DNA of 62,283 bases, filler included. It is 5 parts of 5 records of this genome, joined end to end, with 100 filler letters (N's around TTAATTAATTAA, not from the genome) between each part and the next. Parts side by side here need not be neighbours in the genome. Positions count along the whole stretch, not along the records: positions 28,948 to 40,929 come from SRR20825019_1486; 4 more parts are not named here. One strand, written 5' to 3'. The notes below the pieces were generated by a model. The model worked only from the letters and a program-made list of their open reading frames with translations, made no database searches and was not told the DNA's origin. Below are positions 23,541-44,392 of the stretch, in pieces. Within the stretch, counting starts at the first letter, position 1. Each line of letters starts with the position of its first letter. The translations under genes were made by a program, and so were the position numbers.

Positions 23541-23544
23541 ACTG

Positions 23545-25867: not shown

Positions 25868-25885
25868 AAGGCTAAAGATACAATT

Positions 25886-26494: not shown

Positions 26495-26584
26495 CTCAAT
26501 AAAAAGTTTGAAGTTTGAGCGGCAAAGTTAGAAGTTAATTCACGAAAATGGTAAACAGATGCTGAAAAAATAATTTAATACAAT

Positions 26585-27871
26585 TTAAGCTTTAGGGGTT
26601 GTTGAAATTTGTTTTGAATGCTTATAAAATAATATAGATGCTAAAAAGCCTATAGCAGAAAATATGCCTAAAGCAATAAATACATAACTATGGCCTTGCT
26701 CACCATTCCAACCATCTAAAAAGTAACCTATCATAGGACCAGCAAAGATGTCTGGTGTGTAACCAATAAATGATATAAGACCAACAGCTGTTCCCGTAAG
26801 CGTTAAGGGTATTTTGCCTTCTTGCATTACTGCAAAATACAGTACTCTAACAGCATATACGCCGATAGCTGTAATAACAATGCTTGTAAAGAAAAACAAC
26901 GTAGTGTTATCTGGTAAGACGCCAGAAGCAAATATGCTAGCGCCGATAACAGATAGTAAAAAACCAATACATAAATAAAGTGAGGCTTTAGATCTGTCTG
27001 CTAAAACACCAATGAGAACACCAACAACAGGTCTTATAAATAATAAAAAGGTTCCTGTTTGTGCAGCTTCAATTTCAGAATATTTCATCACATCTTTTGC
27101 ATATAAAGAGAAAATATCTGTAATCTTATAACCTATATAAGCACAGAGTATAATTATCATTAAAAGCCATACAGCTTTAAGTTGTAATACGTCTTTTATG
27201 TTTTTAAGTGTAATGTGTTCCTTAATAGTTTCCTTTTCTATTGTTGCTTTAGTATCTAGCTTTAAAAAGAAATAAACTAATAGTCCTATTAGTATTACAA
27301 TGCCAGATGTTATTAAGATAACAGCTTTAAATGCTTCACGTTGTTCAATAGTATTAAGGTCTACATCATTATCTGGCATAAGAAACGCAAAAATTAATAC
27401 CCCTAAAAGTCCAAATAAGGCACCTACCAAACCACGACCGCCATCTAAAAAACCAAATGCCTTACCTTGGCTGTCTGTGCCACCCCAAATACGAGTTGCT
27501 TTAATCATACCTGCCCAAAACAAACAAATTGTAGTAAAACCCCAATATCCATAAAGTATTTTTAACGTTGTGTATGATGGATTGTTGGCATATACAAAAC
27601 CACCTATGGCAGTTAATATGAGAGAGATTCCCATTAATTTTCTAGGTTGAAATTTATCTGCTAAAGGACCACCAAACAAATAAGACACTAACGCCACTAA
27701 GCCATATATTGAAAAACAATAACCAAGCTGTGTATTAGTTACTTGAAATACATCTAAAACGGTAGCCCTAAACACTCTCGCTAAGACAAAAGGCAAAATG
27801 AAAACAGCTTCTCCTGCTAAAATTAGGAGAATAATGTAGTGTAGTGGTTTTTTAATGTTGTCTTTTTTCAA
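26585..27871 (-). CDS. MFS transporter
   Basis: About 12 hydrophobic segments; GGPLADKF and GVLADRS loop motifs; TTG start. Confidence 0.9.
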   Translation of the reverse strand: MKKDNIKKPLHYIILLILAGEAVFILPFVLARVFRATVLDVFQVTNTQLGYCFSIYGLVALVSYLFGGPLADKFQPRKLMGISLILTAIGGFVYANNPSYTTLKILYGYWGFTTICLFWAGMIKATRIWGGTDSQGKAFGFLDGGRGLVGALFGLLGVLIFAFLMPDNDVDLNTIEQREAFKAVILITSGIVILIGLLVYFFLKLDTKATIEKETIKEHITLKNIKDVLQLKAVWLLMIIILCAYIGYKITDIFSLYAKDVMKYSEIEAAQTGTFLLFIRPVVGVLIGVLADRSKASLYLCIGFLLSVIGASIFASGVLPDNTTLFFFTSIVITAIGVYAVRVLYFAVMQEGKIPLTLTGTAVGLISFIGYTPDIFAGPMIGYFLDGWNGEQGHSYVFIALGIFSAIGFLASILFYKHSKQISTTPKA

Positions 27872-27954
27872 AGGTATGTTACAGTTTGGTTTGTGAAAGA
27901 TAAGAAATAAGGCTTTGGCAAATTGTATTAGGTTAGGGTCTGTAAATAAGGTGT

Positions 27955-28025
27955 TTTGTGTTAGGGATAGAGCACGTTACCGTTTAACGGTGAAAGCCCG
28001 ACCCGATTTAGGGGAACACCCGAAA
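27955..28025 (+). repeat. Flavobacterial intergenic structured repeat (Flavo-1-like)
   Basis: GTGTTAGGGATAG...ACCGTT-T-AACGGT hairpin...GAAAGCCCGACCC...GGGGAACAC; family recalled from memory. Confidence 0.55.
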
Positions 28026-28105
28026 CAGTAACTTGTAATTTGTATTCAAAAAAGTTGTTAACGACTCAAACAACTGCCTAAGTTTTCATTTATAGTTTTT
28101 ATTTC

Positions 28106-28145
28106 TGACACTCTGTCATAATCATTCTAGTGGCACATCTTTTGA
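28106..28145 (+). promoter_or_regulatory. TGACA-N3-TGTCA palindrome plus sigma54-like TGGCAC-N5-TTG element upstream of dnaK
   Basis: TGACACTCTGTCA at 28106-28118; TGGCACATCTTTTGA at 28131-28145. Confidence 0.6.
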
Positions 28146-28173
28146 CTTTTAGTAGTCGAGAAAACAATTTTGA

Positions 28174-28847
<674 letters not shown>

Positions 28848-28947
28848 NNNNNNNNNNNNNNNNNNNNNNNNNNNNNNNNNNNNNNNNNNNNTTAATTAAT
28901 TAANNNNNNNNNNNNNNNNNNNNNNNNNNNNNNNNNNNNNNNNNNNN
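28848..28947. other. Artificial contig linker
   Basis: N-TTAATTAATTAA-N. Confidence 0.99.
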
Positions 28948-29070
28948 CAGGGTCACCTCTCAGCAGAAATCAACACTTCGGCTTCACTGGCAATTGGACC
29001 GCCGACGACCAGTATGGTTAGATCGCTCGCCTCGACTATCTCTGTGACACGCCCATTGCATATCCTTTAT

Positions 29071-30231
29071 CTAATAGGCTTCGCGATAAAGCCTTGCCGC
29101 ATCGGCTTCGTCAATTTCGGCAGGATTGTTGATCAGCAGGCGGGTCTGCTTCATCGCGTCGTTTGCGAGCATTGAAAGATCCTGCTCAAGAACACCTACA
29201 TCCCGCAGCCTGAGCGGCGCTCCCGACTGCTCCATCAGCGCCTGCATCGTCGTGACGAATTGTGCCGCGCGCGCCTGGATGCCCTCGTCCTTTGGCTCGC
29301 AGATCACGTCAGCCAGTTCTGCGTAAAGCGGCGCGGCTGCCGTCATGTTGAAACGGAGCACCGGGCCCAGCATCAGAGCATTGGTCAAACCGTGCGGCAG
29401 ATGATAGCGGCCACCCAGCGGATAGGCCAGCGCATGCACCGCGCCGACGGGGCTGTTGGCAAACGCCTGTCCCGCGAGAGTCGAGCCCAGCAGCATGGCC
29501 TCGCGGGCGACGCGGTCGGCCCCGTCCCTGCACGCTCTGATGAGATTGGTTGACATCAACCGAAGCGCTTCCCTTGCAAGAAGGTCAGAAACAGGATTCT
29601 TCTTATGGCGTCCGGTATACGCTTCGATCGCATGAACCATGGCGTCGATACCGGTCGCCGCCGTCTGCGGACGGGGCAGTCCGACCGTCAGTTCGGCGTC
29701 GAGAAGAACGCGGTCGGCGTAAAGCTGGGGCGCCACGATCCCCATTTTCTCGCTCTCGCCGGTGGTCAGGATGCTGATATTGGTCACCTCCGATCCGGTC
29801 CCCGCCGTCGTCGGTATCTGCACCAGCGGAACGCGTCCGCCGGCAATTTTGCCGATGCCGTAGAGTTCCCTCAGCTGCTGTTCGCTCACCAGCATCACCG
29901 CTGCGAGTTTCGCCACATCCATGGACGAACCGCCACCCAAGCCGACGACGATATCCGCCTCTGCGTCCCGGCCCCGGGCGAGGCAGTTCATCAACACGCT
30001 TTCAGGGGGATCGGCTACGACCGCATCGAATATCGTAACCTTGAAGCCGGCTTCGTCCAGCGATTTCAGGGCGGGCGCCAGGAGGCCGGACTCACGCAGA
30101 AACCGGTCGGTCACGAGAAGCAGAGACCGTTGGGAAAACCAGTTGCCCATAAGCGATCCCAGACGTGACGCGCCGCCCCATTCGAAGTGGAGCGCCGCAG
30201 GCGTATGAAAGGAGAAGGATGCAGGTTCCAT
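29071..30231 (-). CDS. Iron-containing alcohol dehydrogenase
   Basis: GGGSSMD, PTTAGTGSE, DAMVHAIE, HALAY, HGLTNA. Confidence 0.93.
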   Translation of the reverse strand: MEPASFSFHTPAALHFEWGGASRLGSLMGNWFSQRSLLLVTDRFLRESGLLAPALKSLDEAGFKVTIFDAVVADPPESVLMNCLARGRDAEADIVVGLGGGSSMDVAKLAAVMLVSEQQLRELYGIGKIAGGRVPLVQIPTTAGTGSEVTNISILTTGESEKMGIVAPQLYADRVLLDAELTVGLPRPQTAATGIDAMVHAIEAYTGRHKKNPVSDLLAREALRLMSTNLIRACRDGADRVAREAMLLGSTLAGQAFANSPVGAVHALAYPLGGRYHLPHGLTNALMLGPVLRFNMTAAAPLYAELADVICEPKDEGIQARAAQFVTTMQALMEQSGAPLRLRDVGVLEQDLSMLANDAMKQTRLLINNPAEIDEADAARLYREAY

Positions 30232-30302
30232 GACTGTCTCTTGCGGGTTCGGGATTTGTTCCACAGCGCGGGCGCTGGCGCTGAAGGCCGATACGTCGCG
30301 GC

Positions 30303-32600
30303 CTATTGGTTTCTGTCGTCAAACGACGCGATATCGGGCGGGGCCAGCGCTCTGACGGGCGCCGGATCGGCGACAGGGCCAGAGAGCCTCACGAGGCAGG
30401 TCTGCGCAGAACACCCCTGTGTCAGCGACGATGTGCCGCGATCCAGCGTCAGAACATTCGGGTTGCCGTGGCGGTCGCCCCCCGCCCCGTCCGGATCGTA
30501 CCAGGCGCCGGTCGAAAGCTTGACCACGCCCGGCATGATATCCGCCGAAACCCTGGCGCCGGCGAGCGCCCGCCCCCGTTCATTGCTGAGTTCCACCAGA
30601 TTGCCGGTCACGATGCCGCGCGCGGCGGCGTCAGCCTCGCTGATCATGACGGGCTCGCGACCGGCGATCTTGCCTGCCCGGCTGTGCGCGCTGGCATCAA
30701 GCTGGGAGTGAAGTCGCCGGGAGGGCTGGTCGGACAGAAGATGTAACTGGTCGGCTTCGGCCTCGCCAAGCCATTCCGCCGGCGAAAACCAGCTGGCGTG
30801 GCCACGGCAGTCCGGCAGGTCGAACTCGGCAATCATCTCGCTGAAGAGCTCGATTTTGCCCGAAGGGGTCGGCCTTTTATGGGCAATCGGGTCGTCTCGG
30901 AAGGCTTCCATCATGACCGTCGGCCGCGCCTCGCGCGCGAGCAGCACTAGCCCCTCCTCCCAGAAATCATCAAATTCCGGCAGCTGGCAGTCTGCGCCGG
31001 CAAGCCGTCGGCGCGTTTGCTCGTAGATTTGGCGCAGCCAGTCGATCTCGGTGCGTCCTTCGGTGAACGCTTCAGTGATACCAAGCCTTTCGGCCAGCCC
31101 GCAGAAGATTTCGTAATCGCTGCGCGATTGCCCGAGACTTTGCGCGGCCCGTCGCATGGCAACGAGATGGCCCTCGCGCGTGGCAAAGCCGATATCATTG
31201 CGCTCCAGAACCGTATTGGCCGGAAACACGATGTCGGCGCGGCGGGCGGTCGGCGTCCAGTACTGTTCATGGACGATGATCGTCTCGGGTCGTGCCCAGG
31301 CCTGCTCCAGCCGATTGAGATCCTGGTGGTGATGATAGGGATTGCCCCCAACCCAGTAGATCAGCCTGATATCGGGGTAGCTGCGGGTTTGTCCCCCGTA
31401 TTGAAATGGGCTGCCGGGATTTTCCAGCATGTCGGTAATCCGCGCGACCGGGATGAAGTCGCGGACCGGATTCTTTCCCTGATCGAGCGTCGGACCGGGA
31501 ACGGCCGCAAACGGGCTGCCGAGCGCATTTGTCGTGCCGTAGCCGAAACCGAAGCCGCCGCCCGGCAAGCCGATCTGGCCGACAATGGCGGCCAGCGTGA
31601 CCAGCATCCAGCAGGGCTGTTCGCCGTGGCTTGCCCTTTGCAGCGACCACGCCATGTTCAACATCGTGCGCGTGCCCGCCATCTCGCGGGCGAGGGATTC
31701 GATGCGTTCGGCCGGAACGCCCGAGATCGCCTCGGCCCACGCCGGCGTGCAGGGTTCGCTTCCGTCACGCCCCATCAGGTGGGCCTCCACCCGATCGAAA
31801 CCGGTGCAGTGGCTTTGCAGAAACGCCCGGTCATGCAGGCCTTCACGGACGATGACATGGGCGATCGCCAACATCACGGCCGTGTCGGTGTTGGGGCGTA
31901 TCGGTATCCACTCGGCTTCGGGTACATCGAGATTGTCGCGCACCGGGCTGAAATTGACGAACCTCACCCCGCGCTCGCGCATCGCCTGAACGCCGCTGCG
32001 GGTAAAATGCGTACGCACCCCGCCGGGCGAGACCTGGGTGTTCTTGCGCGGAATGCCGCCGAAGGTCACGAACAGTTTCGTGTGTTCGGCCATCACGTCC
32101 CAGGTTGTATGCTCGGCCATCAGCCCCTTCATCGGCCCGATGATATAGGGCATCAGCGCGTGGGCGGCGCCAAGGCTGTACGTGTTCACGTGCGGCACGT
32201 AACCACCTAGACAGTTCATGAACCGGTGAACCTGGCTCTGTCCGTGATGGAAACGGCCCGCGCTGGCCCAGCCATAGGAGCCGGCGAATATCGAGGCATT
32301 GCCGTGCTCATCGATCACTCGTCTTATTTCGGCTGAAGCGAGATCGAGGGCCTCGTCCCACGGGACCTCGATCATCCGCTCGCCGCCGCGGTCGCCGGGT
32401 TCTGCGCCCGGTCCATTCTTCAGCCAGCCTTCGCGCACCGCCGGACGCTTCACCCGCAGGGCGCGCAGTTCGGGCTGGTCAAGATCGAGACCGATGCCCG
32501 CCGGATCCTCATCGCTGGCGAGCGGTCTGGCGCGCACCGAGCCAGAAGCGTCGGTGTCGACCTCGAAAATCCCCCAATGCGATGAGGTATAGCGTGGCAT
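30303..32600 (-). CDS. Mo-bisPGD oxidoreductase, BisC/DMSO-reductase type, cytoplasmic
   Basis: SSHWG, GSYGWASAG, TYS Ser ligand, PTPSGKIEL, RLHSQ; no Tat signal; RBS GGAAAGG. Confidence 0.93.
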   Translation of the reverse strand: MPRYTSSHWGIFEVDTDASGSVRARPLASDEDPAGIGLDLDQPELRALRVKRPAVREGWLKNGPGAEPGDRGGERMIEVPWDEALDLASAEIRRVIDEHGNASIFAGSYGWASAGRFHHGQSQVHRFMNCLGGYVPHVNTYSLGAAHALMPYIIGPMKGLMAEHTTWDVMAEHTKLFVTFGGIPRKNTQVSPGGVRTHFTRSGVQAMRERGVRFVNFSPVRDNLDVPEAEWIPIRPNTDTAVMLAIAHVIVREGLHDRAFLQSHCTGFDRVEAHLMGRDGSEPCTPAWAEAISGVPAERIESLAREMAGTRTMLNMAWSLQRASHGEQPCWMLVTLAAIVGQIGLPGGGFGFGYGTTNALGSPFAAVPGPTLDQGKNPVRDFIPVARITDMLENPGSPFQYGGQTRSYPDIRLIYWVGGNPYHHHQDLNRLEQAWARPETIIVHEQYWTPTARRADIVFPANTVLERNDIGFATREGHLVAMRRAAQSLGQSRSDYEIFCGLAERLGITEAFTEGRTEIDWLRQIYEQTRRRLAGADCQLPEFDDFWEEGLVLLAREARPTVMMEAFRDDPIAHKRPTPSGKIELFSEMIAEFDLPDCRGHASWFSPAEWLGEAEADQLHLLSDQPSRRLHSQLDASAHSRAGKIAGREPVMISEADAAARGIVTGNLVELSNERGRALAGARVSADIMPGVVKLSTGAWYDPDGAGGDRHGNPNVLTLDRGTSSLTQGCSAQTCLVRLSGPVADPAPVRALAPPDIASFDDRNQ

Positions 32601-32634
32601 CGCGCCTTTCCTTTCCTGACCTTCAGGCCTTGTT

Positions 32635-33819
32635 TCAGGCCGTGACCTCAAGTTTCGGCGAACGTTTCAGAACATCGTCATTGAGCGAAATGCCCAGCCC
32701 CGGCGTATCGGGAACATCAAAATAGCCGTCGCGAGGCTGAAGGTCGATATCGCAGAGTTCGACATTATAGACCTTCATGGCATGGCTGTGATGCTCATGG
32801 ATCAGGAAGTTCGGGATTGCCGCCTCAAGATGCAGCGAGGCCGCCGTCGCCACCGGGCTGCCGCAGACGTGAACCTGCACGGTCACGTCATAGATATGCG
32901 CGTAGTCGCACATCTTCTTGGCTTCGGTGAGACCGCCCACCAGTCCAATGTCGGGCTGCAAGACCTCCAGGCTCTGCTCTTCGAGATAGGGCCGCACGCC
33001 CCAGCGGGAGAAAATGCGTTCGCCGGCCGCCAGCGGGATCGTCGTGCGCCCGGCCACATAGGACTGCATGCGCGAATTGGTATAGCTGACCGGCTCCTCG
33101 AAATAGTAGATGCCGAATTCCTCAAGCGCTTCGATGAGTTGCACCGCGGCAGGACCGCTTGTCAGACTGTGCACTTCAAGAATGATTTCTCCCTCCGGCC
33201 CCAGCGCCTCGCGCACGGCCGCCATGCGGCCCCGGAAAAGGTCGAGTTGCGACCGGGTGAAATAGGTGACATGGCGGTCCAGACGATTGCCATCAGCATC
33301 CATGTTGATCGGATCCACCTTAACGCAGGTGAAGCCTTGCGCGCGGGCAGCGCTTGCCGAGCGGCCATAATCCTCGGCCGAACCAAGCTGCAGATAGGTG
33401 TCGCCCCAGCCAAGCTGGAGCTGGCTGGCATAGGTGCGCAGACGATCGCGCGTCTTGCCGCCCAGAAGCTGGTGGCAGGGCACGCCGAGCGCCTTTCCCT
33501 GAACATCCCAGAGCGCGGTATCGATGCCGCTCAATCCGGCGAGGACATGAGTGTTGGCGGCCTGTCCCCAGAAACTGCCGCGATAGACGTTCTCCCACAG
33601 GGCCTCGCGCCGCATCGGATCGGCGCCGATGAAGAAACGTTCGGCGATTTCCCGAGCCGCCTCCGCTCCGGCCGCATGGCCGACACCATAGGCCAGTCCG
33701 ACCTCGCCGACGCCGGTCAGGCCTTCATCGGTATGGACGCGCACCAGAACCGGGTGCCACGGGATCGCGATCCCGTCGGGCATCTGGACGTCGAATATTT
33801 CCACCTTGCTGATTTTCAT
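32635..33819 (-). CDS. Mandelate racemase/enolase-superfamily dehydratase (DgoD-like)
   Basis: SGIDTALWD, KVD, EVH, EEP, AGE, QPD; ATGA overlap with tctA. Confidence 0.9.
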   Translation of the reverse strand: MKISKVEIFDVQMPDGIAIPWHPVLVRVHTDEGLTGVGEVGLAYGVGHAAGAEAAREIAERFFIGADPMRREALWENVYRGSFWGQAANTHVLAGLSGIDTALWDVQGKALGVPCHQLLGGKTRDRLRTYASQLQLGWGDTYLQLGSAEDYGRSASAARAQGFTCVKVDPINMDADGNRLDRHVTYFTRSQLDLFRGRMAAVREALGPEGEIILEVHSLTSGPAAVQLIEALEEFGIYYFEEPVSYTNSRMQSYVAGRTTIPLAAGERIFSRWGVRPYLEEQSLEVLQPDIGLVGGLTEAKKMCDYAHIYDVTVQVHVCGSPVATAASLHLEAAIPNFLIHEHHSHAMKVYNVELCDIDLQPRDGYFDVPDTPGLGISLNDDVLKRSPKLEVTA

Positions 33820-35330
33820 GGGCGGGCACCTTTTCTGGAAGAATTGAAGGAACGCAGATAGCGCAGGAGCGGGACCACGATGGCGACGAGCGTCAGGGCG
33901 AGGATCACCGCGGAGAAGGGTCGGGTCACGAAGGGCAGATAGGAGCCTCGGCCGTATTCGAGGGCGAGGCGCAACTGCTCTTCGGCCATGGGGCCGAGGA
34001 TAATGCCTAGGATCAGAGGCAGGATCGGAAAGCGCGCCACCCTCAAACCGTAGCCGAGAACCCCGAACGCCAACAGCGTGTAGACGTCGAACATACGGTT
34101 GTTCAGGACATAGCTGCCGATGACGCAGAGCACGAAGATGACGGAAACGATATACTGCGTGGGGATCGTCAACACCCGGATGATCGTGCCGATCAGCAGA
34201 TGGTAGAATATGGTGCAAAACGCGAAGGACACGAAAAAGGCGACAAAGATGAATGCGACATAGTCGCCGTTCATCACGAACAGCAGCGGTCCGGGTTCGA
34301 CATTGTGCAGCATCAGCGCCGACAGCAGCATGAGCGTCGAGGCATCGCCCGGAATGCCCAGCGTCAGCATGGGAATGAGGGAACCGCCCATCGAAGCGTT
34401 GTTGGCCGCCTCCGGCGAGACGATTGCCTCGGGTAGTTCTCCCGTCCCGAACTTCTCCGGCGTCTTCGAACTCGCCCGCGCCTGGCTGTAGGCCAGTATG
34501 TTGGACAGACCCGGGCCGACGCCCGGCAGGATTCCGATCCCGATGCCAATCAGCGTGGAGCGCAGCAGCGCCCATTTCACGCTCAGAACCTCTGTAAAGG
34601 CGCGCATAAACTCGGGCAGCCTGAAAGCCGTCTGCAGCCGGTTCACCGTCGCGCCGATGCGGTTCGTATCGAGAATAAGCTGCGGCAGCGCGAAGGCGCC
34701 GACCAGAGCGGGCAGCACATTGATACCGCCTTCGAAAGCGGCAACGCCGAAGCTGAACCGGGACGCGCCCACGCCGGTCGAATAGCCGATCATCGACAGA
34801 CACACGCCGAACATTGCGATGGCCACCGCCTTGAGCGTGTCGCCCTCCGAAAGGCTGGCAATGGTGAGAAACGTGAAAATAACGATCGCGAAATATTCCC
34901 ACGGGCCGAATTGCATCGCGAAACGCGACAGGGCGGGTGCGATCAGCACCAGCGCCAGACCGCTGATAACGCCGCCGATCATCGAGGCGTAGACGCCGAG
35001 ACCGAGCGCGCGGGAGAGCTGCCCCTTCTTGGCCATCGGATAACCGTCGAGACAGGTCGCGGCCGCGGCCGGCGTGCCCGGAATGTTGAGCACGATCGCC
35101 CCGACCAGCCCGCCCGAGATGGCGCCGCAATAGACGCCCATCAGCAATCCGATGGAGGATTCGAAATCCATCGTGAAAGTCAGCGGCACCAGCAGCGCCA
35201 GCGCCATGGTGGATGTGAGGCCCGGAATGGAGCCGATGACGAGACCCGCCGCCACGCCGGCCGCGATCATCACCAGCAGCATGGGGTTTGCCGCCAGATC
35301 GCCGAGGGCCGAAAAGATATAACCGCTCAT
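33816..35330 (-). CDS. tctA: Tripartite tricarboxylate transporter large permease TctA
   Basis: GSIPGL, NIPGTPAAAATCLDGYPM, PEAANNA, LTLGIPG. Confidence 0.95.
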   Translation of the reverse strand: MSGYIFSALGDLAANPMLLVMIAAGVAAGLVIGSIPGLTSTMALALLVPLTFTMDFESSIGLLMGVYCGAISGGLVGAIVLNIPGTPAAAATCLDGYPMAKKGQLSRALGLGVYASMIGGVISGLALVLIAPALSRFAMQFGPWEYFAIVIFTFLTIASLSEGDTLKAVAIAMFGVCLSMIGYSTGVGASRFSFGVAAFEGGINVLPALVGAFALPQLILDTNRIGATVNRLQTAFRLPEFMRAFTEVLSVKWALLRSTLIGIGIGILPGVGPGLSNILAYSQARASSKTPEKFGTGELPEAIVSPEAANNASMGGSLIPMLTLGIPGDASTLMLLSALMLHNVEPGPLLFVMNGDYVAFIFVAFFVSFAFCTIFYHLLIGTIIRVLTIPTQYIVSVIFVLCVIGSYVLNNRMFDVYTLLAFGVLGYGLRVARFPILPLILGIILGPMAEEQLRLALEYGRGSYLPFVTRPFSAVILALTLVAIVVPLLRYLRSFNSSRKGARP

Positions 35331-35340
35331 GATCCTTGCC

Positions 35341-35817
35341 TCATCCGCCCAGTGTCATTTCAGGGAGAAAGCTCTCCAGCCCGTAGACGACCACGAGATA
35401 GACGAACGCCGTTACCGCAACCGCGACCGATGCGGAGATCGCCAGGGATCGCGCATCGCGTTTGCCCAGAAGGAATGCGGTCGCCGTCATGAAAATGACC
35501 GAGGAGAGCATGAAACCGAGCGATCCGAAGGCCAGGACGAAAAGGACGGCGGCGACAAGGAACAGCACGCGCCGGCGACTGAAAATTTCGCCCCAGGCGG
35601 GGATGTACTGATCGGCGAAGCGCTTGCTCCAGACGACGGAACGGATCAGCAGAACCGCGAACAGGACCAGCGTGGCCACGATGAAGACCATCGGAATTGT
35701 GCGCGGCGAATAGAACTGGCTGACATTCGTGGCGCTCTGGATCTGCGGCAGTTGCGCCGCCAGCCCGAGCACGAGCAGGGTAAGCCCGCCCGTTATCAAC
35801 AAGTCGATGGATCTCAT
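35341..35817 (-). CDS. tctB: TTT small membrane subunit TctB
   Basis: 4-5 TM helices, SPRTIP motif, lies between tctC and tctA. Confidence 0.88.
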   Translation of the reverse strand: MRSIDLLITGGLTLLVLGLAAQLPQIQSATNVSQFYSPRTIPMVFIVATLVLFAVLLIRSVVWSKRFADQYIPAWGEIFSRRRVLFLVAAVLFVLAFGSLGFMLSSVIFMTATAFLLGKRDARSLAISASVAVAVTAFVYLVVVYGLESFLPEMTLGG

Positions 35818-35872
35818 GAGTTTTTCCCGAGTGATCTGACGGCCGCCGCCGCATGGCCACGATGGCGGTGAG

Positions 35873-35893
35873 AGAGCCGCGCAGAGCGCGGCT
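35873..35893. other. GC-rich stem-loop between tctC and tctB
   Basis: GAGCCGCGC-AGA-GCGCGGCTC; the usual position of an mRNA-stabilising hairpin after a binding-protein gene. Confidence 0.55.
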
Positions 35894-35910
35894 CGCGTTT
35901 CACGCTCGCG

Positions 35911-36879
35911 TCACTGGACCGAGTACTTCTTTATCAGATCCTTGTAGACCTTCATCTCGGCCTCGTTATAGGCTTCCACTTCGGCGGCATCCTTGTACAT
36001 CGCCTGAAAGCCCTTTTCCTCGAGCGCCGCGGCACACTCCTCGTCGGTGGCGGCCTTCTCCCAGGCCTCTCGCAAGACGTTCAGCGCTTCTTCGGGCGTG
36101 CCCTTGGGTGCCCAGGTAATGATGTTGACGCCGTAGGACACGTCGACGCCCTGCTCCTTGGCGGTCGTCGCGTCAGGCATCTGCTCGACGCGTTCGTCGG
36201 CAAGTATGGCGATGGGCTTGAGCTGGCCGGCCTCGATGTAAGGCTTGGCGGTCGCGAGATCCATCGTGGCAAGGTCGAGATTCCCCTGAAGGATGGCCAC
36301 CACGCGGTTCTTCGATCCGGCGAGGCCGATGATCTGTGTCTGAGCGATATCCATATCGTCGGCTTCCATCACGATCAGGGATGCGAAATGCGAAAGCCCG
36401 CCTAGCGCTGCGCCGACCTTCAGCTCGCCCGGGTTTTCGGCGATATAGGCCTTCATGCCGGCAAGGTCGTCGAACGGAACGTTGGCGTTTGCGAACACAC
36501 CCCATGGACCAAAGGCCGCCTGGGCAACCACGTCGTAATCGGAAGGCGCGTGCTCGGTCACGCCGCGGGCCGACAGCGCATGCAGCGACTGATGCTGCCA
36601 CAGCAGCTTGTAACCCGTAGGACGCTCCTTGACGACGGTATCCTCGGCGACGGCGCCCGCGCCGCCCGTGATGTTGCGGACGAGCACTTTTTCCGGAAGC
36701 ACCTTGTCGAGGCAGCCGGCGAAAACGCGCGCGGAGATATCGGACCCGCCGCCCGGGGCATAGGCCGCGATCAGTTCGATCGGCTTGTCGGGGAATGTCT
36801 GCGCGCCCGCCATCGGCGCCGTCATGGCCACCGCCGCTACCGCGACCGTGGCGCTCAGGGTTTTCACTCTATTAAACAT
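35911..36879 (-). CDS. tctC: TTT substrate-binding protein TctC/Bug
   Basis: Signal peptide, FPDKPIELIAAYAPGGGSD, NITGGAG, APKGTP; RBS GGAGGAG. Confidence 0.94.
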   Translation of the reverse strand: MFNRVKTLSATVAVAAVAMTAPMAGAQTFPDKPIELIAAYAPGGGSDISARVFAGCLDKVLPEKVLVRNITGGAGAVAEDTVVKERPTGYKLLWQHQSLHALSARGVTEHAPSDYDVVAQAAFGPWGVFANANVPFDDLAGMKAYIAENPGELKVGAALGGLSHFASLIVMEADDMDIAQTQIIGLAGSKNRVVAILQGNLDLATMDLATAKPYIEAGQLKPIAILADERVEQMPDATTAKEQGVDVSYGVNIITWAPKGTPEEALNVLREAWEKAATDEECAAALEEKGFQAMYKDAAEVEAYNEAEMKVYKDLIKKYSVQ

Positions 36880-36938
36880 GGGTCTCCTCCCTTTGTTGTT
36901 TTGATTGAACTGCTCTCTCAGTCCGAAACATCGGCGCC

Positions 36939-37649
36939 CTAGCGCTTCACCTCTCCCGTTTCGGACTGAATGACTCCGGTCTCGTAAGCCGTCTCGAAAG
37001 CTCGCGAGGTGTGCTGCATCAGGGCCTGCGCCAGCCGCGCGCCATCGCCGGCGCGGATGATGTCGATGATTTCTCCATGCTCGGCGTTGGAGCGCTCCTG
37101 ACGCTCCCGCGTGCGCTGGCCGATGGCGAAACACAGATAGATTCGCATCTGCAGGTTCATCGCGATCTCGCAGAGCACGGCGTTGTTGCTCGCCTCGATG
37201 ATGGCCTCATGGAAACGCCGGTTGATCTTGGCCCATCCCAGCATGTCGCCGGCTTCGCACAGACGACCCATTTCCTCGTGATGGCGCTGGATCTCCGCCA
37301 GTTGCGCCTGCGTGATCCGCTCCACAACCTGCACGGCCATCTTGTCCCACAGCCACCCCATGACCTCGACAAGCTCTCCGGCCTCGCGCGCATCAGGCAA
37401 GCTTAGAACGGCCCCGGCATTCGGGCGGGTTCTCACGAGGCCGCGGGCGGCGAGCATTTTTATCGCCTCGCGCAACGGCGTGCGCGATACGCCCAGAACG
37501 TCGCTCAGCGCCTTTTCGGTCAACCGGTCGCCGCCGCGAAGCTCGCCGGTGGCGATAAGGTCATTGATCATCTCGACCACCCGTTCCGGGAAGGGTGTCA
37601 CCTGCATTTCAGTCAGTGTGGAAAGCCCGTTATTGCCGCTCATCGCCAT
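36939..37649 (-). CDS. GntR/FadR-family (FCD) transcriptional regulator
   Basis: HTH LGVSRTPLREAI; FCD NRRFH and EH motifs. Confidence 0.93.
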   Translation of the reverse strand: MAMSGNNGLSTLTEMQVTPFPERVVEMINDLIATGELRGGDRLTEKALSDVLGVSRTPLREAIKMLAARGLVRTRPNAGAVLSLPDAREAGELVEVMGWLWDKMAVQVVERITQAQLAEIQRHHEEMGRLCEAGDMLGWAKINRRFHEAIIEASNNAVLCEIAMNLQMRIYLCFAIGQRTRERQERSNAEHGEIIDIIRAGDGARLAQALMQHTSRAFETAYETGVIQSETGEVKR

Positions 37650-37670
37650 GATCGCCTGCTTGCCTCTTAA

Positions 37671-37724
37671 TTGCATATTGCATACAATATACCTAGATGG
37701 TAATGGATTGCATACAATATGCAA
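37671..37724. promoter_or_regulatory. Candidate GntR operator sites in the divergent promoter
   Basis: ATTGCATACAATAT at 37677-37690 and 37707-37720; palindrome TTGCATA-CAA-TATGCAA at 37708-37724. Confidence 0.75.
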
Positions 37725-37748
37725 CAACTTTTTTGAGTGGAGGATAAA

Positions 37749-38327
37749 ATGAGTGTGGAACAGAACCGTCACGCCGCGGTGGCCGAGACGATCGACAAGG
37801 TCCGCGCGATCTGCGGATCCGGCAACATGAGCCGCGACAAACTGGGGCGGATTGAAGAGGTGCTGCTGGAGCTCGCGGCGCGGGAAGACCTTTTCCCCGA
37901 CAGTGAATTCGGAATTCCGGCGGACGAGAAAATTCGTCTCTATCGCATGGCCGAAGACCCGGACGGCAGCTTCGCGCTTTACCTTCACGCAGCCAATGTG
38001 CCTGCCGAAGTCGCTCCGCATAATCACGCGACCTGGGCCGCCATCGCCGGCATTGGAGGAGAGGAGACGAATTTCCTCTATGAGCGGAACAATGGCGACG
38101 CACCGGTTCTCACCGGCCAAAGGCCAATCCGAAAAGGCGAGTCGATCTCACTTATGCCCGACGATGTTCACTCCATTCGCGCAGGGGGGACGGAACCCCT
38201 GAAAAACCTTCATCTTTATGGCCTCGCCATGGAAAAGCTTCACGATCGTGAGTTCTGGGACGCCGAGCGCGCAGTCTGGACTCAGGTGCCGCCGACCTCC
38301 GGCATCATCGAGCGGAGGTCCGCATGA
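37749..38327 (+). CDS. Thiol (cysteine-type) dioxygenase-like cupin
   Basis: PHNHATW, DVHSI, LHLYG; three-His metal site. Confidence 0.85.
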   Translation: MSVEQNRHAAVAETIDKVRAICGSGNMSRDKLGRIEEVLLELAAREDLFPDSEFGIPADEKIRLYRMAEDPDGSFALYLHAANVPAEVAPHNHATWAAIAGIGGEETNFLYERNNGDAPVLTGQRPIRKGESISLMPDDVHSIRAGGTEPLKNLHLYGLAMEKLHDREFWDAERAVWTQVPPTSGIIERRSA

Positions 38328-39946
38328 CACCGCGTCTGACCGCTACAGAGGTCCGCGATCTGGCCGTAAAGGGCGGAGAATATGCATTTCTTGACATGCG
38401 CGAGGAGGGAGACTTCTGCAAGAAGCGTCTTATGCTGGCCTCCTGCCTGCCGCTCAGCCGGCTGGAGCTGCGCGCCCGCTTGCTAGTTCCGCGCCGTTCT
38501 ACCCCTGTTGTCATCATGGATGGCGCCAGCGATGGGCTGGCGGAGATCGGCGCCGGGCGGCTTTCCGCGCTCGGTTACGAGGACATCGCCATCCTCGACG
38601 GCGGGGTCGCGGCCTGGGAGGCCGCGGGACTACCGGTCTACAGCGGCGTCAATGTTCTGACAAAGGCTTTCGGGGAGGTCGTTCATCGTCAGTGCGGCAC
38701 GCCGGACATATCCGCCAGAGAACTCAAGGACTGGATTGATGACGGGAGGGATCTCGTCATTCTGGATGCGCGCCCCTATGCCGAGTATCACGAGCACACC
38801 ATTCCCGGTTCGATCTCCGTTCCGGGCGCGGAACTGGCGGCCCGCGCAGCGGAACTGGCCCCCTCGCCGGATACCACCATTGTCGTCAATTGCGCAGGCC
38901 GGACCCGCTCCATCATCGGCTGCCAGTCATTGATCAATGCGGGCGCGCCCAACAGGGTCCATGCCCTGCGCAACGGCACGATGGGTTGGAAGCTGGCCGG
39001 CTTCAGCCCGGAAACCGGGGCAACGCGCAATGCGGCCGCAAGCGAAACGCTCGACGCCGACGCGCTGCGCCTTCGCGCGCGCAGTCTTGCGGAAAAATTC
39101 GGCGTCGCGATACTCAACCCGCAAGACCTCGCAACATTGAAGGCGCCAGGAGACCGCAACGTCTATCTGTTCGATGTGCGCACGCCCGACGCGTTTTATG
39201 CCGGGCATATGGCGGGCAGCGTAAACGCCCCCGGCGGGCAGCTGGTGCAGGCCATGGATGACTATATAGCCGTGAGAAACGGCATTGTCGTCCTTGTCGA
39301 TCCTTTGCTCATGCGGGCCATCATGACCGCCTCCTGGCTCAATCAGGTGTCCCAATGCGAGACCTATGTCCTCGATCCGTGTCCGCCGCTTGGCGAAACC
39401 GGAAAGCCGGAATCGGCCGTCCTCAACTTGCCGGCGATACCCCGCATGACAGTTGCCGACCTGGCGGAACAACGGCGCAAGAATGCGAGAACGGCAGTCA
39501 TTGACTATTCCGTTTCTGTTCGTCATCGCGAGGGCCACATTCCGGGCGCCTTCTGGGCAGTCCGCGGACGCGAAGCCGCGCTTGCCGAGGCCGTGCTTGC
39601 CGAGGCCGTGGGGCCCGTCGACCAGATCGTGCTGACCGGTGAGGACACCGACCTGTTGCGGCTGGTCGCCCCGGAGATCGCAAAGGCAACGGGAGCGGTT
39701 GTCTCCTGCCTCGCAGAAGGCATTGAAGCCTGGAAGGACGCGGGCCACCCGGTCGAAACCGGAATGAGAAATCCAATCGGCCCGGTGAATGACGTTTGGT
39801 ACAAGCCTTTCGAGCTGGACGACCCGCAGGCCGAGAAAAAGGCGGCCGAAGCCTATCTGGACTGGGAGGTCGAGCTGACCGAAAAGGTTGCCCGCGACCT
39901 TGTCGATTTTCATCCAATGACTTTTGCAGGAAAGCATGAAGGATGA
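38324..39946 (+). CDS. Multi-domain rhodanese/sulfurtransferase
   Basis: Four repeats of D.R...H(I/M).GS-like motifs; Cys loop VNCAGRTRS; ATGA-coupled to the cupin. Confidence 0.9.
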   Translation: MTPRLTATEVRDLAVKGGEYAFLDMREEGDFCKKRLMLASCLPLSRLELRARLLVPRRSTPVVIMDGASDGLAEIGAGRLSALGYEDIAILDGGVAAWEAAGLPVYSGVNVLTKAFGEVVHRQCGTPDISARELKDWIDDGRDLVILDARPYAEYHEHTIPGSISVPGAELAARAAELAPSPDTTIVVNCAGRTRSIIGCQSLINAGAPNRVHALRNGTMGWKLAGFSPETGATRNAAASETLDADALRLRARSLAEKFGVAILNPQDLATLKAPGDRNVYLFDVRTPDAFYAGHMAGSVNAPGGQLVQAMDDYIAVRNGIVVLVDPLLMRAIMTASWLNQVSQCETYVLDPCPPLGETGKPESAVLNLPAIPRMTVADLAEQRRKNARTAVIDYSVSVRHREGHIPGAFWAVRGREAALAEAVLAEAVGPVDQIVLTGEDTDLLRLVAPEIAKATGAVVSCLAEGIEAWKDAGHPVETGMRNPIGPVNDVWYKPFELDDPQAEKKAAEAYLDWEVELTEKVARDLVDFHPMTFAGKHEG

Positions 39947-40857
39947 GCGCAACCCGAGTTCCGCTTCTGTGCTTGATCGACCTGCCCGCCGAGGCGGTCT
40001 CGGCCCTGCAGGAGCGCTATGAACTGCTGCGGCCCGAAGACGGTGCCTCCAATCGCTGTCGAGGCATCGTTACCGGCTATGGCGGAATGGTGGACGACGC
40101 CCTGCTGGCGCGCTACCCGAGCATCGAGATCATCGTATGCTTCACCTCCGGACGTGATATGGTCGATACCGAGGCGGCGTCCCGGAAGGGTATCGATGTC
40201 GTCTCGAACGGTGCGGCGCTGGCAGGCTCGGTCGCCGATCTGGCCCTTGCCTTGATGCTTGCAAGCGCGCGTGAACTGCCCGCGCTCGATGCCCATGTCA
40301 GATCCGGCCGATGGCGCGAAAAGCGCTACCGCCCGGGCATACTTCTTTCCGGGCAGCGGCTTGGGGTCGCGGGCTACGGGGCCATCGGCAATGGGATCAT
40401 CAGCCGCGCGATGGCCTTCGGCATGGAGGTAGCGACGTTCACGCGTCGCCCGCCGCGCGACAATCCTGTCCGGCATTTCAGCGATCTCAAGGCTATGGCG
40501 ACCTGGGCGGACTGGCTGGTGCTGGCCTTGCCGGGCGGACCATCCACCGACGGTATCGTGAATGAGGACGTGCTGAAAGCGTTGGGGGCCGAAGGCACGC
40601 TCATCAATGTCGGCCGCGGTTCCCTGGTGGACGAAGCGGCCCTCATCAGTATGCTCGAGGCACGCCAGATCGGAGGCGCTGCGCTCGATGTCTTCGAAGA
40701 CGAACCGGTGCCGAATCCGGCCTTCTCCAAGCTTGAGAACGTCATCCTTTCTCCGCATCAAGGCGCAAACACATCCGCCGCGCTTTCGCTCAGAAGCCAA
40801 GCCCTGCGTGAGATGCTCGATAACAAGTTCCAGGATGCGGCGGGCAAGCACAATTGA
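39943..40857 (+). CDS. D-isomer-specific 2-hydroxyacid dehydrogenase
   Basis: GYGAIG, INVGRG, LDVFEDEP, SPH. Confidence 0.93.
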   Translation: MSATRVPLLCLIDLPAEAVSALQERYELLRPEDGASNRCRGIVTGYGGMVDDALLARYPSIEIIVCFTSGRDMVDTEAASRKGIDVVSNGAALAGSVADLALALMLASARELPALDAHVRSGRWREKRYRPGILLSGQRLGVAGYGAIGNGIISRAMAFGMEVATFTRRPPRDNPVRHFSDLKAMATWADWLVLALPGGPSTDGIVNEDVLKALGAEGTLINVGRGSLVDEAALISMLEARQIGGAALDVFEDEPVPNPAFSKLENVILSPHQGANTSAALSLRSQALREMLDNKFQDAAGKHN

Positions 40858-40929
40858 TGAATGCGGGCCGCAGCAAAGCATGAATATCGGGGTACGATAG
40901 CCCTGCTGGAGATAGATCATGGCGACTAA

Positions 40930-41029
40930 NNNNNNNNNNNNNNNNNNNNNNNNNNNNNNNNNNNNNNNNNNNNTTAATTAATTAANNNNNNNNNNNNNNN
41001 NNNNNNNNNNNNNNNNNNNNNNNNNNNNN
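40930..41029. other. Artificial contig linker
   Basis: N-TTAATTAATTAA-N. Confidence 0.99.
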
Positions 41030-41521
<492 letters not shown>

Positions 41522-41562
41522 TTAATAGCTATTGTAAAATTATAAGATTCGTTGCTACAACA

Positions 41563-41609
41563 ATAGATAATCGATATTAAAATACTATTAAATAATAGTC
41601 ATCATCTAT
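41563..41609. promoter_or_regulatory. OxyR/LysR-type boxes upstream of katG
   Basis: ATAG-N7-CTAT at 41595-41609 plus further ATAG/CTAT tetrads at about 10-11 nt spacing. Confidence 0.55.
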
Positions 41610-41775
41610 TTTAATACATCGGAATAATATCTGTGCTGGACGCATCTGCATGCTTTCCTAAATTTAAGGATTTCTTTACTCATTCGTTAATTTATTATTT
41701 GATATTACTATTTGAATTATCTTTAAAGTACTAACTATTAAGAAACTGTATAAAAAAATAAAAACATCATTACAA

Positions 41776-42384
41776 ATGAAAAAATTACTCTTCCCTTTAG
41801 CCATTGTTCTATTTTTCGGTTTTACCAAAGATCCAGAAATTCAAATCGACTCAAAGGACAAAGAATGGATCATGAAACATTTAACGGAAAGTCGAGAACA
41901 CATGAAACAAGTACTGGATGGTCTTTCTGATGAACAACTCGACTACAAGCCCGACCCAACTTCGTGGTCCATCGCCGAAAATGTGGAACACTTGGCATTG
42001 ACGGAAAAAATGTTTGTTGAAATGCTCCATAAAAGTATTGCTGATGGCCCAAAACCAGAGCTAAAAGATTCCCTTGTTTTTAAAGATGACCAAATTATGC
42101 CCATGATAGCTGATAGGAGTCAAAAAGTTAAAACTGCAGAACCATTTGAACCTAGTGGTCAGTTTGGTTCTACGGAGGAGACCTTGGGCGCGTTGCTTGC
42201 CATACGCCAAGAACTTATGGAATATATTGAAACCACCGAGGATGATCTAAGAAACCGTTATGCAAAACTACCTTTTGGCACTGTTGATGCCGCCCAGTTC
42301 ATTGTTTTTATCGCAGGACATATGGAAAGGCACGTGCTACAAATGGAAGAGGTAATGGAAGACGAGGATTTTCCTCAAATGTAA
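41776..42384 (+). CDS. Exported DinB-family protein
   Basis: Signal peptide; WSIAENVEHL and HMERH motifs. Confidence 0.85.
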   Translation: MKKLLFPLAIVLFFGFTKDPEIQIDSKDKEWIMKHLTESREHMKQVLDGLSDEQLDYKPDPTSWSIAENVEHLALTEKMFVEMLHKSIADGPKPELKDSLVFKDDQIMPMIADRSQKVKTAEPFEPSGQFGSTEETLGALLAIRQELMEYIETTEDDLRNRYAKLPFGTVDAAQFIVFIAGHMERHVLQMEEVMEDEDFPQM

Positions 42385-42482
42385 TGTGAAAACTATAGGC
42401 TTTCCTTAACAATAATTGGCAAACCCTTTCCAGATTGGAAGGGGTTCTTTCTTTAATTTTGAGTAACAAAAAAAGAAACACT

Positions 42483-43013
42483 ATGAAACGTATACAACCT
42501 GTTATAATGCTGACCCTTTTTCTTTTCGCCATTTCTATATCGGCCCAAAGCAGAAAGGATGAAAAAATAATGGCGGACGCCGAAAAGGCAAAATCTACAC
42601 TGCTGGAAACAAGTCCAAGTTTGGAAGGCTTTTTTGAGAATTCTGCCGGTTACGTAATCTTCCCCAATGTTGGAAAAGGTGGTTTTATCATCGGTGGTGC
42701 ATCTGGTAACGGTGTGGTGTATGAAAACGGTGATGCCGTGGGAATGGCCGACCTTAAAAAATTGAACATTGGATTACAGGCAGGCGGACAGGCCATTATC
42801 GAAGTAATTTTCTTCGAGACCGATGTGGACCTGCAACGTTTTAAGACCGAAAAGTTCCAATTTGCGGCCGAGACTTCGGCAGTTGCCTTAAAATCGGGCA
42901 TAGCCTTTAACGCCAAGTACAAGGATGGTGTGGCCGTTTTTGCACTTCCGAAAGCGGGTCTTATGGCCGATGCATCTGTGGGTGGGCAAAAGTTTAGCTA
43001 TAAGGCGTTTTAA
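42483..43013 (+). CDS. Ysc84/SYLF-domain exported protein
   Basis: FPNVGKGGFIIGG, GLQAGGQ, GLMADASVGGQKF; signal peptide from MKRIQP. Confidence 0.85.
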   Translation: MKRIQPVIMLTLFLFAISISAQSRKDEKIMADAEKAKSTLLETSPSLEGFFENSAGYVIFPNVGKGGFIIGGASGNGVVYENGDAVGMADLKKLNIGLQAGGQAIIEVIFFETDVDLQRFKTEKFQFAAETSAVALKSGIAFNAKYKDGVAVFALPKAGLMADASVGGQKFSYKAF

Positions 43014-43017
43014 TATT

Positions 43018-44382: not shown

Positions 44383-44392
44383 AAGAAGTAGA

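Follow-up and report, generated by a model that had tools for sequence, protein, structure and literature searches.

A divergent gene cluster joining a thiol-dioxygenase-type cupin, an enolase-superfamily dehydratase and a BisC-type reductase as a candidate catabolic unit for a sulfur-bearing carboxylic acid

The third of five contigs (SRR20825019_1486) in a joined stretch of 62,283 nucleotides, filler included and here called the window, raises the question of whether ten genes that diverge from a shared promoter region next to a GntR regulator gene serve a single catabolic pathway and, if they do, for what kind of compound. The ten genes were named in an earlier note on this DNA, and Pfam, NCBIfam and PDB matches place all of them where that note had put them, between positions 29071 and 40857 (Table 1). 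The minus strand carries, in order, gntR, tctC, tctB, tctA, a gene for an enolase-superfamily protein (the dehydratase), a BisC-type gene (the reductase) and an iron-type alcohol dehydrogenase gene (Fe-ADH). Divergently from gntR, the plus strand carries genes for a cupin, a four-domain rhodanese and a D-2-hydroxyacid dehydrogenase. The genes are tightly packed, with 4-bp overlaps between dehydratase and tctA, between cupin and rhodanese and between rhodanese and 2-hydroxyacid dehydrogenase. The best explanation, in which we place roughly even confidence, is that contig 3 represents one accessory, horizontally spread catabolic cluster for some sulfur-bearing carboxylic acid.

Contig 3 is colinear with DNA of Martelella mediterranea IOP_24 (genome G001, locus L001) at 92.5% nucleotide identity over 11,938 bp, and L001 contains all ten genes in identical order, the 2-hydroxyacid dehydrogenases being 88% identical. 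The joined layout bisC-dehydratase-tctABC-gntR / cupin-rhodanese is kept in L001, in a second genome (G002, locus L002) and in a third (G421, locus L113), the last a 7-kb contig that is cut at both ends. Identities to the window proteins are 52% (cupin), 80% (dehydratase) and 66% (reductase) in L002 and 58%, 76% and 62% in G421, and the GntR regulator is 63-65% identical in both. That the layout has been kept while the cupins have diverged to 52-58% and the dehydratases to 76-80% identity supports the view that the genes form one unit. In L002 the Fe-ADH gene (49%) follows the rhodanese gene, a Zn-ADH gene follows the reductase and the 2-hydroxyacid dehydrogenase is absent, so that the gene set survives rearrangement. 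The suggestion that Fe-ADH may lie outside the unit is not borne out, since L002 keeps an Fe-ADH gene, moved to the end of the cupin arm.

The distribution of the cluster is patchy. Among the 14 genomes of the genus of G001, the dehydratase and a close cupin occur in G001 only, with one other genome encoding a distant cupin (36%), and this single occurrence marks the cluster as accessory. Across the 141 genomes of the family of G002, those with the dehydratase are the same two, G002 and G421, that have a cupin at 52% identity or more. The idea of the divergent locus as one unit thus gains support both from the layout shared by Martelella, G002 and G421 and from the agreement of presence and absence in the 14 and 141 genomes; the joined arms do co-occur elsewhere, in L001, L002 and G421. 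At the left edge of L001 a fragment of a Tn3-family transposase gene (1062-1364) lies just beyond Fe-ADH, which fits the cluster being an acquired island, and the other edge carries a heavy-metal ATPase gene with MerR and an autotransporter gene. In further support of one unit, the nearest relatives outside Martelella come from the same two sources for three of the proteins, Roseovarius atlanticus and one 32,407-bp contig: P0003 (65%) and P0004 (59%) for the cupin, P0010 (85%) and P0011 (83%) for the dehydratase, and P0129 (74%) and P0131 (69%) for the reductase.

Both arms may be controlled from one regulatory region. Two identical 14-nt boxes, ATTGCATACAATAT, are located 30 bp apart within the 99-bp intergenic region between gntR and the cupin gene, and the second box extends to a 7-3-7 inverted repeat (TTGCATA-caa-TATGCAA). 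The box 12-mer has no other exact copies in the window, and matches with two mismatches are no commoner than in shuffled sequences. L001 retains the boxes, and the divergent promoters of L002 and G421 contain related ones; on a Sulfitobacter plasmid (L089) the motif is found immediately upstream of the dehydratase gene and again where the GntR gene begins. Box 1 contains the -10 hexamer of a promoter-like site (37660-37688) that faces the cupin operon. The interval from gntR to tctC is free of boxes, and gntR through the Fe-ADH gene therefore probably form one transcript. It may reasonably be inferred from this arrangement that the GntR protein controls both arms. A perfect 12-nt inverted repeat, TCAGTCCGAAAC / GTTTCGGACTGA (36918-36929 and 36958-36969, 28 nt apart), flanks the gntR stop codon, and a stem-loop formed by it could set the ratio of regulator to downstream transcript.

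The cupin has no Pfam match even at E 10 and no NCBIfam match, and in the lack of a curated family model its membership of the thiol dioxygenases rests on PDB sequence matches. The best solved relative is mercaptosuccinate dioxygenase (MSDO; PDB 8VNI, E 2.4e-32, residues 8-181), while matches to 3-mercaptopropionate dioxygenase (3MDO; E 6e-4) and to cysteine dioxygenases are weak. Translation more likely starts at ATG 37749 than at GTG 37737, because GGAGGA lies upstream of the former and the homologues begin with MSVEQ. The available text of a preprint on MSDO (bioRxiv 10.64898/2026.05.19.726356) assigns the distal carboxylate of the substrate to Gln64 and Arg66 and the iron-bound carboxylate to Arg175, and further names Asn82, Lys88, the 3-His site, Val151 and His163/Tyr165. 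The iron site is retained, as cupin H95, H97 and H145 align with MSDO His93, His95 and His149; so are the outer-sphere pair (H159 and Y161 for His163 and Tyr165) and the arginine of the proximal carboxylate (R171 for Arg175), and these six residues are invariant in 81 of 81 sequences. Asn157, two residues before His159, is invariant in eight of eight near homologues. In the 8VNI alignment, MSDO Gln64, Arg66, Asn82 and Lys88 are replaced by Ile66, Leu68, His84 and Ala90, respectively. Two residues past Leu68 lies Arg70, which is invariant in the near homologues, and an arginine occupies that position in 59 of the 81 sequences.

The wider family was sampled as 80 cupin loci, taken from the matches listed when aligned cupin homologues were used to search species-representative genomes. 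Only four of these loci, L015, L054, L073 (a Variovorax) and L077, carry the MSDO-type Q-x-R-Y-L signature. In a quick IQ-TREE phylogeny with SH-aLRT support only, the window protein groups with those of L001, L002 and G421 and with the five nearest database homologues, P0001-P0005. This clade of nine rows (100% SH-aLRT), of which only some have a known gene context, sits on a stem of 1.27 changes per column, apart from the clade of MSDO-type proteins (98%) and from a clade of fused cupin-rhodanese proteins (99%). Judged from its residues and its place in the tree, the cupin is not an MSDO orthologue. As it lacks the second-carboxylate site of MSDO, its thiol is probably not mercaptosuccinate, and the proposal that the cluster has a different substrate from the known systems fits a cupin without Gln64/Arg66 in a separate, long-stemmed clade.

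The rhodanese matches a four-domain protein of 539 aa, 1YT8 (which we take to be PA2603), at E 9e-113 over residues 9-527. Its catalytic loop, NCAGRTRS with Cys190, lies in domain 2; the loop cysteine is kept in all 70 homologues and the whole loop is identical in 67 of them, and on our reading of the sequence the other three domains have no cysteine at the loop position. A rhodanese follows the cupin in 70 of the 80 loci, and at least four of the remaining ten are contigs that end just past the cupin gene. The two proteins are fused in one reading frame in 23 of the 80 loci (L007, L012, L014, L022 and 19 more), which supports a coupling of dioxygenase and rhodanese; in four more the frame leaves the contig. 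The fused proteins are about 725-750 aa in length and form one clade (99%), and for L007 the order, first a cupin and then four rhodanese stretches, was confirmed. When neighbours were clustered, none besides the rhodanese recurred in more than 7 of the 80 cupin loci. A cluster of neighbours from 24 loci was judged, from the coordinates of its representative, to consist of antisense open reading frames (ORFs) over the fused genes. The commonest other neighbours are TctC, SDR, family-III CoA-transferase, acyl-CoA ligase, acyl-CoA dehydrogenase, PrpD and enoyl-CoA hydratase, which are presumably similar to the Advenella route through 3-sulfinopropionate. Cupin and rhodanese make up a widespread module that stands by itself and is already in print for 3MDO and MSDO, and being so generic the pair says little on this particular pathway. 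In the accessible parts of the reports, both Variovorax paradoxus B4 and Advenella mimigardefordensis have a rhodanese gene clustered with msdo and binding proteins of tripartite tricarboxylate transporters (TTT) increase on mercaptosuccinate (PMC5373536), and Pseudomonas 3mdo and a PA2603 homologue appear to be one transcription unit (PMC12947264). The background on which the earlier note had drawn is, as far as these texts go, indeed in the literature (PMC5373536, PMC12947264, PMC8102459, PMC6370202).

These precedents invite a simpler answer, namely that contig 3 encodes the known mercaptosuccinate or 3-mercaptopropionate pathway of Variovorax and Advenella in an alphaproteobacterium. MSDO being the closest solved relative of the cupin, the clustering of msdo with a rhodanese gene and the TTT binding proteins that rise on mercaptosuccinate would all suit it. 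However, Ile66 and Leu68 take the places of Gln64 and Arg66, the Q-x-R-Y-L signature belongs to a handful of loci in a separate clade, the 3MDO matches are weak, and the cluster contains no CoA-transferase or desulfinase gene. Moreover, in the part of the report available, the molybdenum enzyme proposed for Variovorax is the Fe/S sulfite oxidiser SoeABC, which is not of the BisC type (PMC6370202). The known pathway is accordingly a very improbable description of this cluster. A literature search for Martelella together with mercaptosuccinate returned nothing.

On the left arm, the dehydratase is closest among solved proteins to 4E6M (E 2.2e-127), 2GL5 and 2O56 (E ~1e-127), which are named 'putative dehydratase' only. 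The depositors of 4E6M assign no function to it, and in the records covered no substrate is given for any protein of this closest family. The motifs EVHS, FEEP, AGER, QPD and VHVCG are common to the dehydratase and 4E6M, and presumably hold the metal ligands and acid/base residues. The label 'DgoD-like' is apt at the level of the superfamily and goes too far below it, as the score against the galactonate dehydratase model PRK14017 is 242.2 bits for a cut-off of 311. The family is rare, occurring in 2 of 401 sampled Alphaproteobacteria. Literature searches for the PDB codes 2GL5, 4E6M, 2O56 and 2OX4 or for STM2273 returned nothing relevant, and among the matches listed no paper joins biotin sulfoxide reductase with TTT or enolase-superfamily genes. 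In the family tree (FastTree) the cluster-linked dehydratases form one clade of six rows (99%), whose sister is a TTT-linked group, L081-L084. Its branching is similar to that of the cluster-linked cupin clade, as one unit would lead one to expect. A metagenome search anchored on the dehydratase yielded eight loci, none with a cupin or rhodanese; in L082 a GntR gene diverges from dehydratase-TctC-TctA-MFS, and in L083 the dehydratase gene diverges from GntR-acyl-CoA synthetase-BisC type-TctCBA. In L085 (4926-5948) and L086 (6293-7012) the gene directly before the dehydratase homologue (56%) encodes a class II aldolase, a setting unlike that with TTT and BisC-type genes.

Ten plasmid records contain a dehydratase homologue at E <= 1e-80, and gene contexts were covered for six of them, leaving out three from Salmonella and one from Pediococcus. 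A BisC-type gene lies within 10 kb of the dehydratase in Sulfitobacter sp. THAF37 (L089), on Methylobacterium nodulans pMNOD02 (L091) and in Sinorhizobium chiapasense (L099); none was found near the dehydratase on the Caballeronia, Sporomusa and Salmonella plasmids. The two rhizobial plasmids, L091 and L099, also carry genes for a MalY/PatB C-S lyase and an amino-acid ABC transporter, which provides an independent link of the left arm to sulfur, and they may represent a related cluster for an S-substituted amino acid. L099 additionally encodes a cupin-domain protein, a Zn-ADH and an FAD oxidoreductase. In all, a BisC-type gene accompanies the dehydratase in 7 of 13 loci with usable context (L001, L002, L113, L083, L089, L091 and L099), a count that leaves aside L082 (6.9 kb, none seen) and L081, L084 and L087, which are too short to judge. 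The reductases that partner a dehydratase belong to at least four mutually distant lineages, with 42-52% identity between groups, and the BisC-linked dehydratases stand at two or more places in the FastTree phylogeny. The pairing of dehydratase and BisC-type reductase is therefore recurrent and not one inherited block.

The reductase itself aligns end to end with Rhodobacter dimethyl sulfoxide (DMSO) reductase 1EU1 (E 1.5e-184, residues 6-749). In this alignment Tyr114, Trp116 and the Mo ligand Ser147 of DMSO reductase correspond to Y109, W111 and S142. The alignment pairs residue 6 with residue 11 of mature DorA, so that no leader is present, and no gene for a partner or iron-sulfur subunit lies within the cluster; by its sequence, the enzyme is cytoplasmic. 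It is 60% identical to a family member from Cereibacter sphaeroides, and many of its relatives carry the JGI name biotin/methionine sulfoxide reductase. BisC-type genes occur on 236 of 72,556 plasmid records. On plasmids of Burkholderia, Palleronia, Thioclava and Rhizobium (L103-L106), a relative of the reductase is the last or near-last gene of a transporter or catabolic operon, together with branched-chain or polar amino-acid ABC transporters, aldehyde dehydrogenase and ornithine cyclodeaminase. Cytoplasmic BisC-type enzymes may thus often be catabolic add-ons and not repair enzymes alone.

Such contexts, which include amino-acid ABC transporters and no sulfur genes, make an N-oxide substrate possible for the reductase. 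The imported compound would then bear an N-oxide or other non-sulfur oxo group for the BisC-type enzyme to reduce, and the cupin arm would handle thiols of another origin. In keeping with this, the model TIGR00509 (bisC_fam) spans S- and N-oxide reductases and the window protein scores below its cut-off (892.8 against 1017.55 bits), and trimethylamine N-oxide (TMAO) reductases are also strong PDB matches (E 1e-142 to 1.5e-176). Tyr114 of DMSO reductase, which is tied to a preference for S-oxides, is nevertheless kept as Y109, a C-S lyase gene accompanies the dehydratase and BisC-type genes in two other loci, and the reductase is linked to a thiol dioxygenase in at least three genomes. An N-oxide or similar substrate is accordingly considered unlikely.

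Several observations weigh against a single sulfur pathway as a whole. The cupin and dehydratase trees both fit a single joining event, which amounts to one independent origin of the linkage. Of the 70 cupin-rhodanese loci, only L001 and L002 possess the left arm, and the GntR-TTT-dehydratase(-BisC) arm occurs without a cupin in L082 and L083. Six of the 13 dehydratase loci (L085, L086, L090, L100, L101 and L102) have no BisC-type gene, and their neighbours (class II aldolase, UxaA and MFS) resemble ordinary sugar-acid catabolism. The closest plasmid relatives of the reductase (53-58%) are found in ABC-transporter/aldehyde-dehydrogenase operons without sulfur genes. Genes for a desulfinase, a CoA-transferase or an aldolase are absent from the cluster, the adjacency of the genes in R. 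atlanticus and in the 32,407-bp contig is inferred from shared sources and not from DNA, and promoter-like sites, at 4 against 2.4 +/- 1.5 in shuffled sequences, are not enriched.

Much of this could be expected of two unrelated modules that share a promoter and were joined once by chance, the one a sugar-acid or hydroxy-acid operon with a repair-type sulfoxide reductase, the other a generic pair for thiol detoxification. Each arm does occur alone elsewhere, the cupin-rhodanese pair lands in many contexts with no other recurrent neighbour, the trees allow a single joining, and about half of the dehydratase loci would pass for simple clusters of sugar-acid catabolism. Yet the linkage persists at 52-80% identity, in at least three sequenced layouts and probably in five lineages of different families, and the cluster-linked cupins form their own long-stemmed clade and are not a sample of the generic pair. 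Furthermore, Fe-ADH changes arm in L002 and the operator-like boxes sit between the two operons. Chance joining of two modules therefore deserves serious weight, doubtful as it appears. The earlier reading is, overall, partly supported: one divergent locus and a substrate different from those of the known systems have found support, and a place for Fe-ADH outside the unit has not. The substrate classes that it put forward, a thio-sugar acid or a hydroxy-thioether/sulfoxide acid, are conjectural.

If contig 3 does encode one pathway for a sulfur-bearing carboxylic acid, it is proposed that TctC binds the acid and TctAB import it, whereupon the cytoplasmic BisC-type molybdoenzyme would reduce its oxidised sulfur, a sulfoxide. 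The enolase-type enzyme would then take the alpha-proton beside the carboxylate and eliminate a beta-substituent, conceivably a thiolate, and so expose or release a mercapto-acid; in the acid-sugar dehydratases the beta-substituent that is eliminated is a hydroxyl. The cupin would oxidise the thiol of the mercapto-acid to a sulfinate, with thiolate and carboxylate on the iron and Arg171 holding the carboxylate. Sulfite would leave the sulfinate, Cys190 of the rhodanese may handle the sulfite or persulfide sulfur, and Fe-ADH and the 2-hydroxyacid dehydrogenase may trim the carbon skeleton. From the two ATTGCATACAATAT boxes, the GntR/FCD protein would keep both divergent operons repressed, and binding of the acid or of its product would lift this repression.

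A bolder version of the elimination step, which we offer as highly speculative, makes the enolase-type enzyme a cofactor-free C-S beta-lyase. After reduction of an S-(carboxyalkyl) sulfoxide by the BisC-type enzyme, retro-Michael expulsion of the thiolate would free a mercapto-monocarboxylate, such as 3-mercaptopropionate or 3-mercaptolactate, for the cupin, and the plasmid loci that combine enolase-type, BisC-type and MalY/PatB genes would act on plant S-substituted cysteine sulfoxides. If true, this would be a new reaction class for the enolase superfamily and would supply the thioether-cleavage step of thiodipropionate-type catabolism. According to the available portions of two reports, that step was uncharacterised as of 2019 (PMC6370202) and TctC proteins carry thiodipropionate in V. 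paradoxus TBEA6 (PMC8102459).

Two parts of this picture are of most interest: a distinct clade of thiol dioxygenases, and the pairing in which an uncharacterised enolase-superfamily family is repeatedly found beside cytoplasmic BisC-type reductases. To our knowledge, thiol dioxygenases with known substrates are few, the substrates being cysteine, cysteamine, 3-mercaptopropionate, mercaptosuccinate and ergothioneine. The clade described here has a rebuilt second-carboxylate site, and its genomic partners hint at the source of the thiol. Cytoplasmic BisC-type reductases are usually regarded as repair enzymes, and the pairing gives both them and the dehydratases a physiological context that can be tested. 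The carriers are culturable marine and rhizosphere bacteria that have close relatives without the cluster. Sulfoxide or thioether acids arise where thiols meet acrylate or plant sulfoxides, and the cluster could reveal a route by which such acids become sulfite.

Table 1. Features of contig 3 with their positions in the window
Feature	Position	Strand	Basis or remark
Contig 3, whole cluster	28948..40929		11,982 bp, GC 0.62, N linkers at both ends
Fe-ADH, 386 aa, last gene of left operon	29071..30231	-	Pfam Fe-ADH + ADH_Fe_C
BisC/DMSO-reductase-type molybdoenzyme, 765 aa	30303..32600	-	PF00384 (Molybdopterin) + PF01568 (Molydop_binding)
Enolase-superfamily dehydratase, 394 aa	32635..33819	-	PF02746 (MR_MLE_N) + PF13378 (MR_MLE_C)
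tctA	33816..35330	-	PF01970, E 1e-132
tctB	35341..35817	-	PF07331
tctC	35911..36879	-	PF03401
GntR/FCD regulator, 236 aa, first gene of left operon	36939..37649	-	PF00392 + PF07729
Two identical 14-nt boxes ATTGCATACAATAT	37677-37690, 37707-37720 (region 37677..37724)		Candidate GntR operators
Thiol-dioxygenase-type cupin, 192 aa	37749..38327 (ORF from GTG 37737)	+	PDB 8VNI match
Four-domain rhodanese, 540 aa	38324..39946	+	Pfam Rhodanese, 3 stretches; 1YT8 match
D-isomer-specific 2-hydroxyacid dehydrogenase, 304 aa	39943..40857	+	Pfam 2-Hacid_dh_C + 2-Hacid_dh

The adjacent TctA, TctB and TctC genes make up a complete TTT set, and the PDB entries that TctC matches best (E 6e-35 to 1e-13) are a terephthalate-binding protein and others that are uncharacterised or of the Bug type. 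Fe-ADH is best matched by the 1,3-propanediol oxidoreductase 3BFJ (E 1.8e-60) and reaches no NCBIfam equivalog cut-off, the top models being ErcA (272 of 550 bits) and sulfoacetaldehyde reductase (271 of 700 bits). The 2-hydroxyacid dehydrogenase best matches hydroxyphenylpyruvate and glyoxylate/hydroxypyruvate reductases (E 3e-45). The relatives of all three, TctC, Fe-ADH and the 2-hydroxyacid dehydrogenase, are only generic.

The stretch in which the cluster lies is composite. A script search located four 100-nt linkers, each an N run, TTAATTAATTAA and a second N run, at 20810-20909, 28848-28947, 40930-41029 and 49090-49189, and the composition profile gives the five contigs a GC content of 0.24, 0.35, 0.62, 0.42 and 0.54 in order. 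As the contigs are joined by linkers, adjacency across them is without meaning, and since the cluster takes up all of contig 3, the sequence beyond its linkers is unrelated to it. As a whole the stretch looks like a mixed bin or concatenated draft. A natural GC island inside a low-GC genome was ruled out because the jumps in GC fall at the N/TTAATTAATTAA linkers, and an assembly chimera within contig 3 was ruled out because L001, a named isolate, has the ten genes in identical order at 92.5% identity. A megablast search of contig 3 against plasmids gave short matches to Fe-ADH only and left the cluster itself uncovered.

The other contigs have their own characters. Contig 1 (1-20809, GC 0.24) has few long ORFs with translation table 11 and 16 ORFs of at least 150 aa with table 4 (TGA = Trp). 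It encodes Cox11/CtaG (7112-7684, minus strand) and ribosomal protein L5 (19017-19583, plus strand), and has the look either of a mitochondrial genome rich in genes or of a reduced symbiont with code 4. Contig 2 (20910-28847) encodes the large and small subunits of methylmalonyl-CoA mutase, an MFS transporter and an Hsp70 whose gene is truncated at the contig end. Contig 4 (41030-49089) begins, at its cut start, with a catalase-peroxidase-like fragment, and also encodes a DUF5689 protein that carries a lamin-tail domain, an endonuclease/exonuclease/phosphatase protein and a protein of 967 aa in which a CarboxypepD_reg-like domain is recognised. The genes of contigs 2 and 4 are ordinary bacterial genes of other organisms.

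Among known systems, the nearest counterpart of the right arm is MSDO (8VNI), which belongs to the same family as the cupin and has in common with it the 3-His iron site, the His/Tyr pair and the arginine of the proximal carboxylate. In V. paradoxus B4 and A. mimigardefordensis the MSDO gene adjoins a rhodanese gene, as it does here, but the MSDO loci have a LysR and not a GntR regulator and a cystathionine beta-lyase that this cluster lacks, and here the pair is joined to a TTT-dehydratase-BisC operon. The 3mdo-tst unit of Pseudomonas likewise consists of two genes, for a cysteine dioxygenase (CDO)-family dioxygenase and then a four-domain rhodanese of about 540 aa; the cupin described here, however, matches 3MDO weakly (E 6e-4), and its cluster contains no CoA-activation or desulfinase genes. 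An iron dioxygenase is also coupled to a rhodanese in the persulfide dioxygenase-rhodanese fusions of sulfide oxidation, where the dioxygenase has a metallo-beta-lactamase fold in place of a cupin. Unlike in those fusions, the conserved Arg171 suggests that the substrate here is a carboxylate-bearing thiol. On the left arm, both MR_MLE domains are shared with the acid-sugar dehydratases DgoD and ManD, from which this family differs in its recurrent pairing with BisC-type reductases. The reductase aligns over its full length with the BisC family and Rhodobacter DorA, keeps the positions of Ser147, Tyr114 and Trp116 and, like BisC, has no Tat leader. Compared with the BisC repair enzymes it scores under the bisC_fam cut-off and does not stand alone, being embedded in a catabolic operon.

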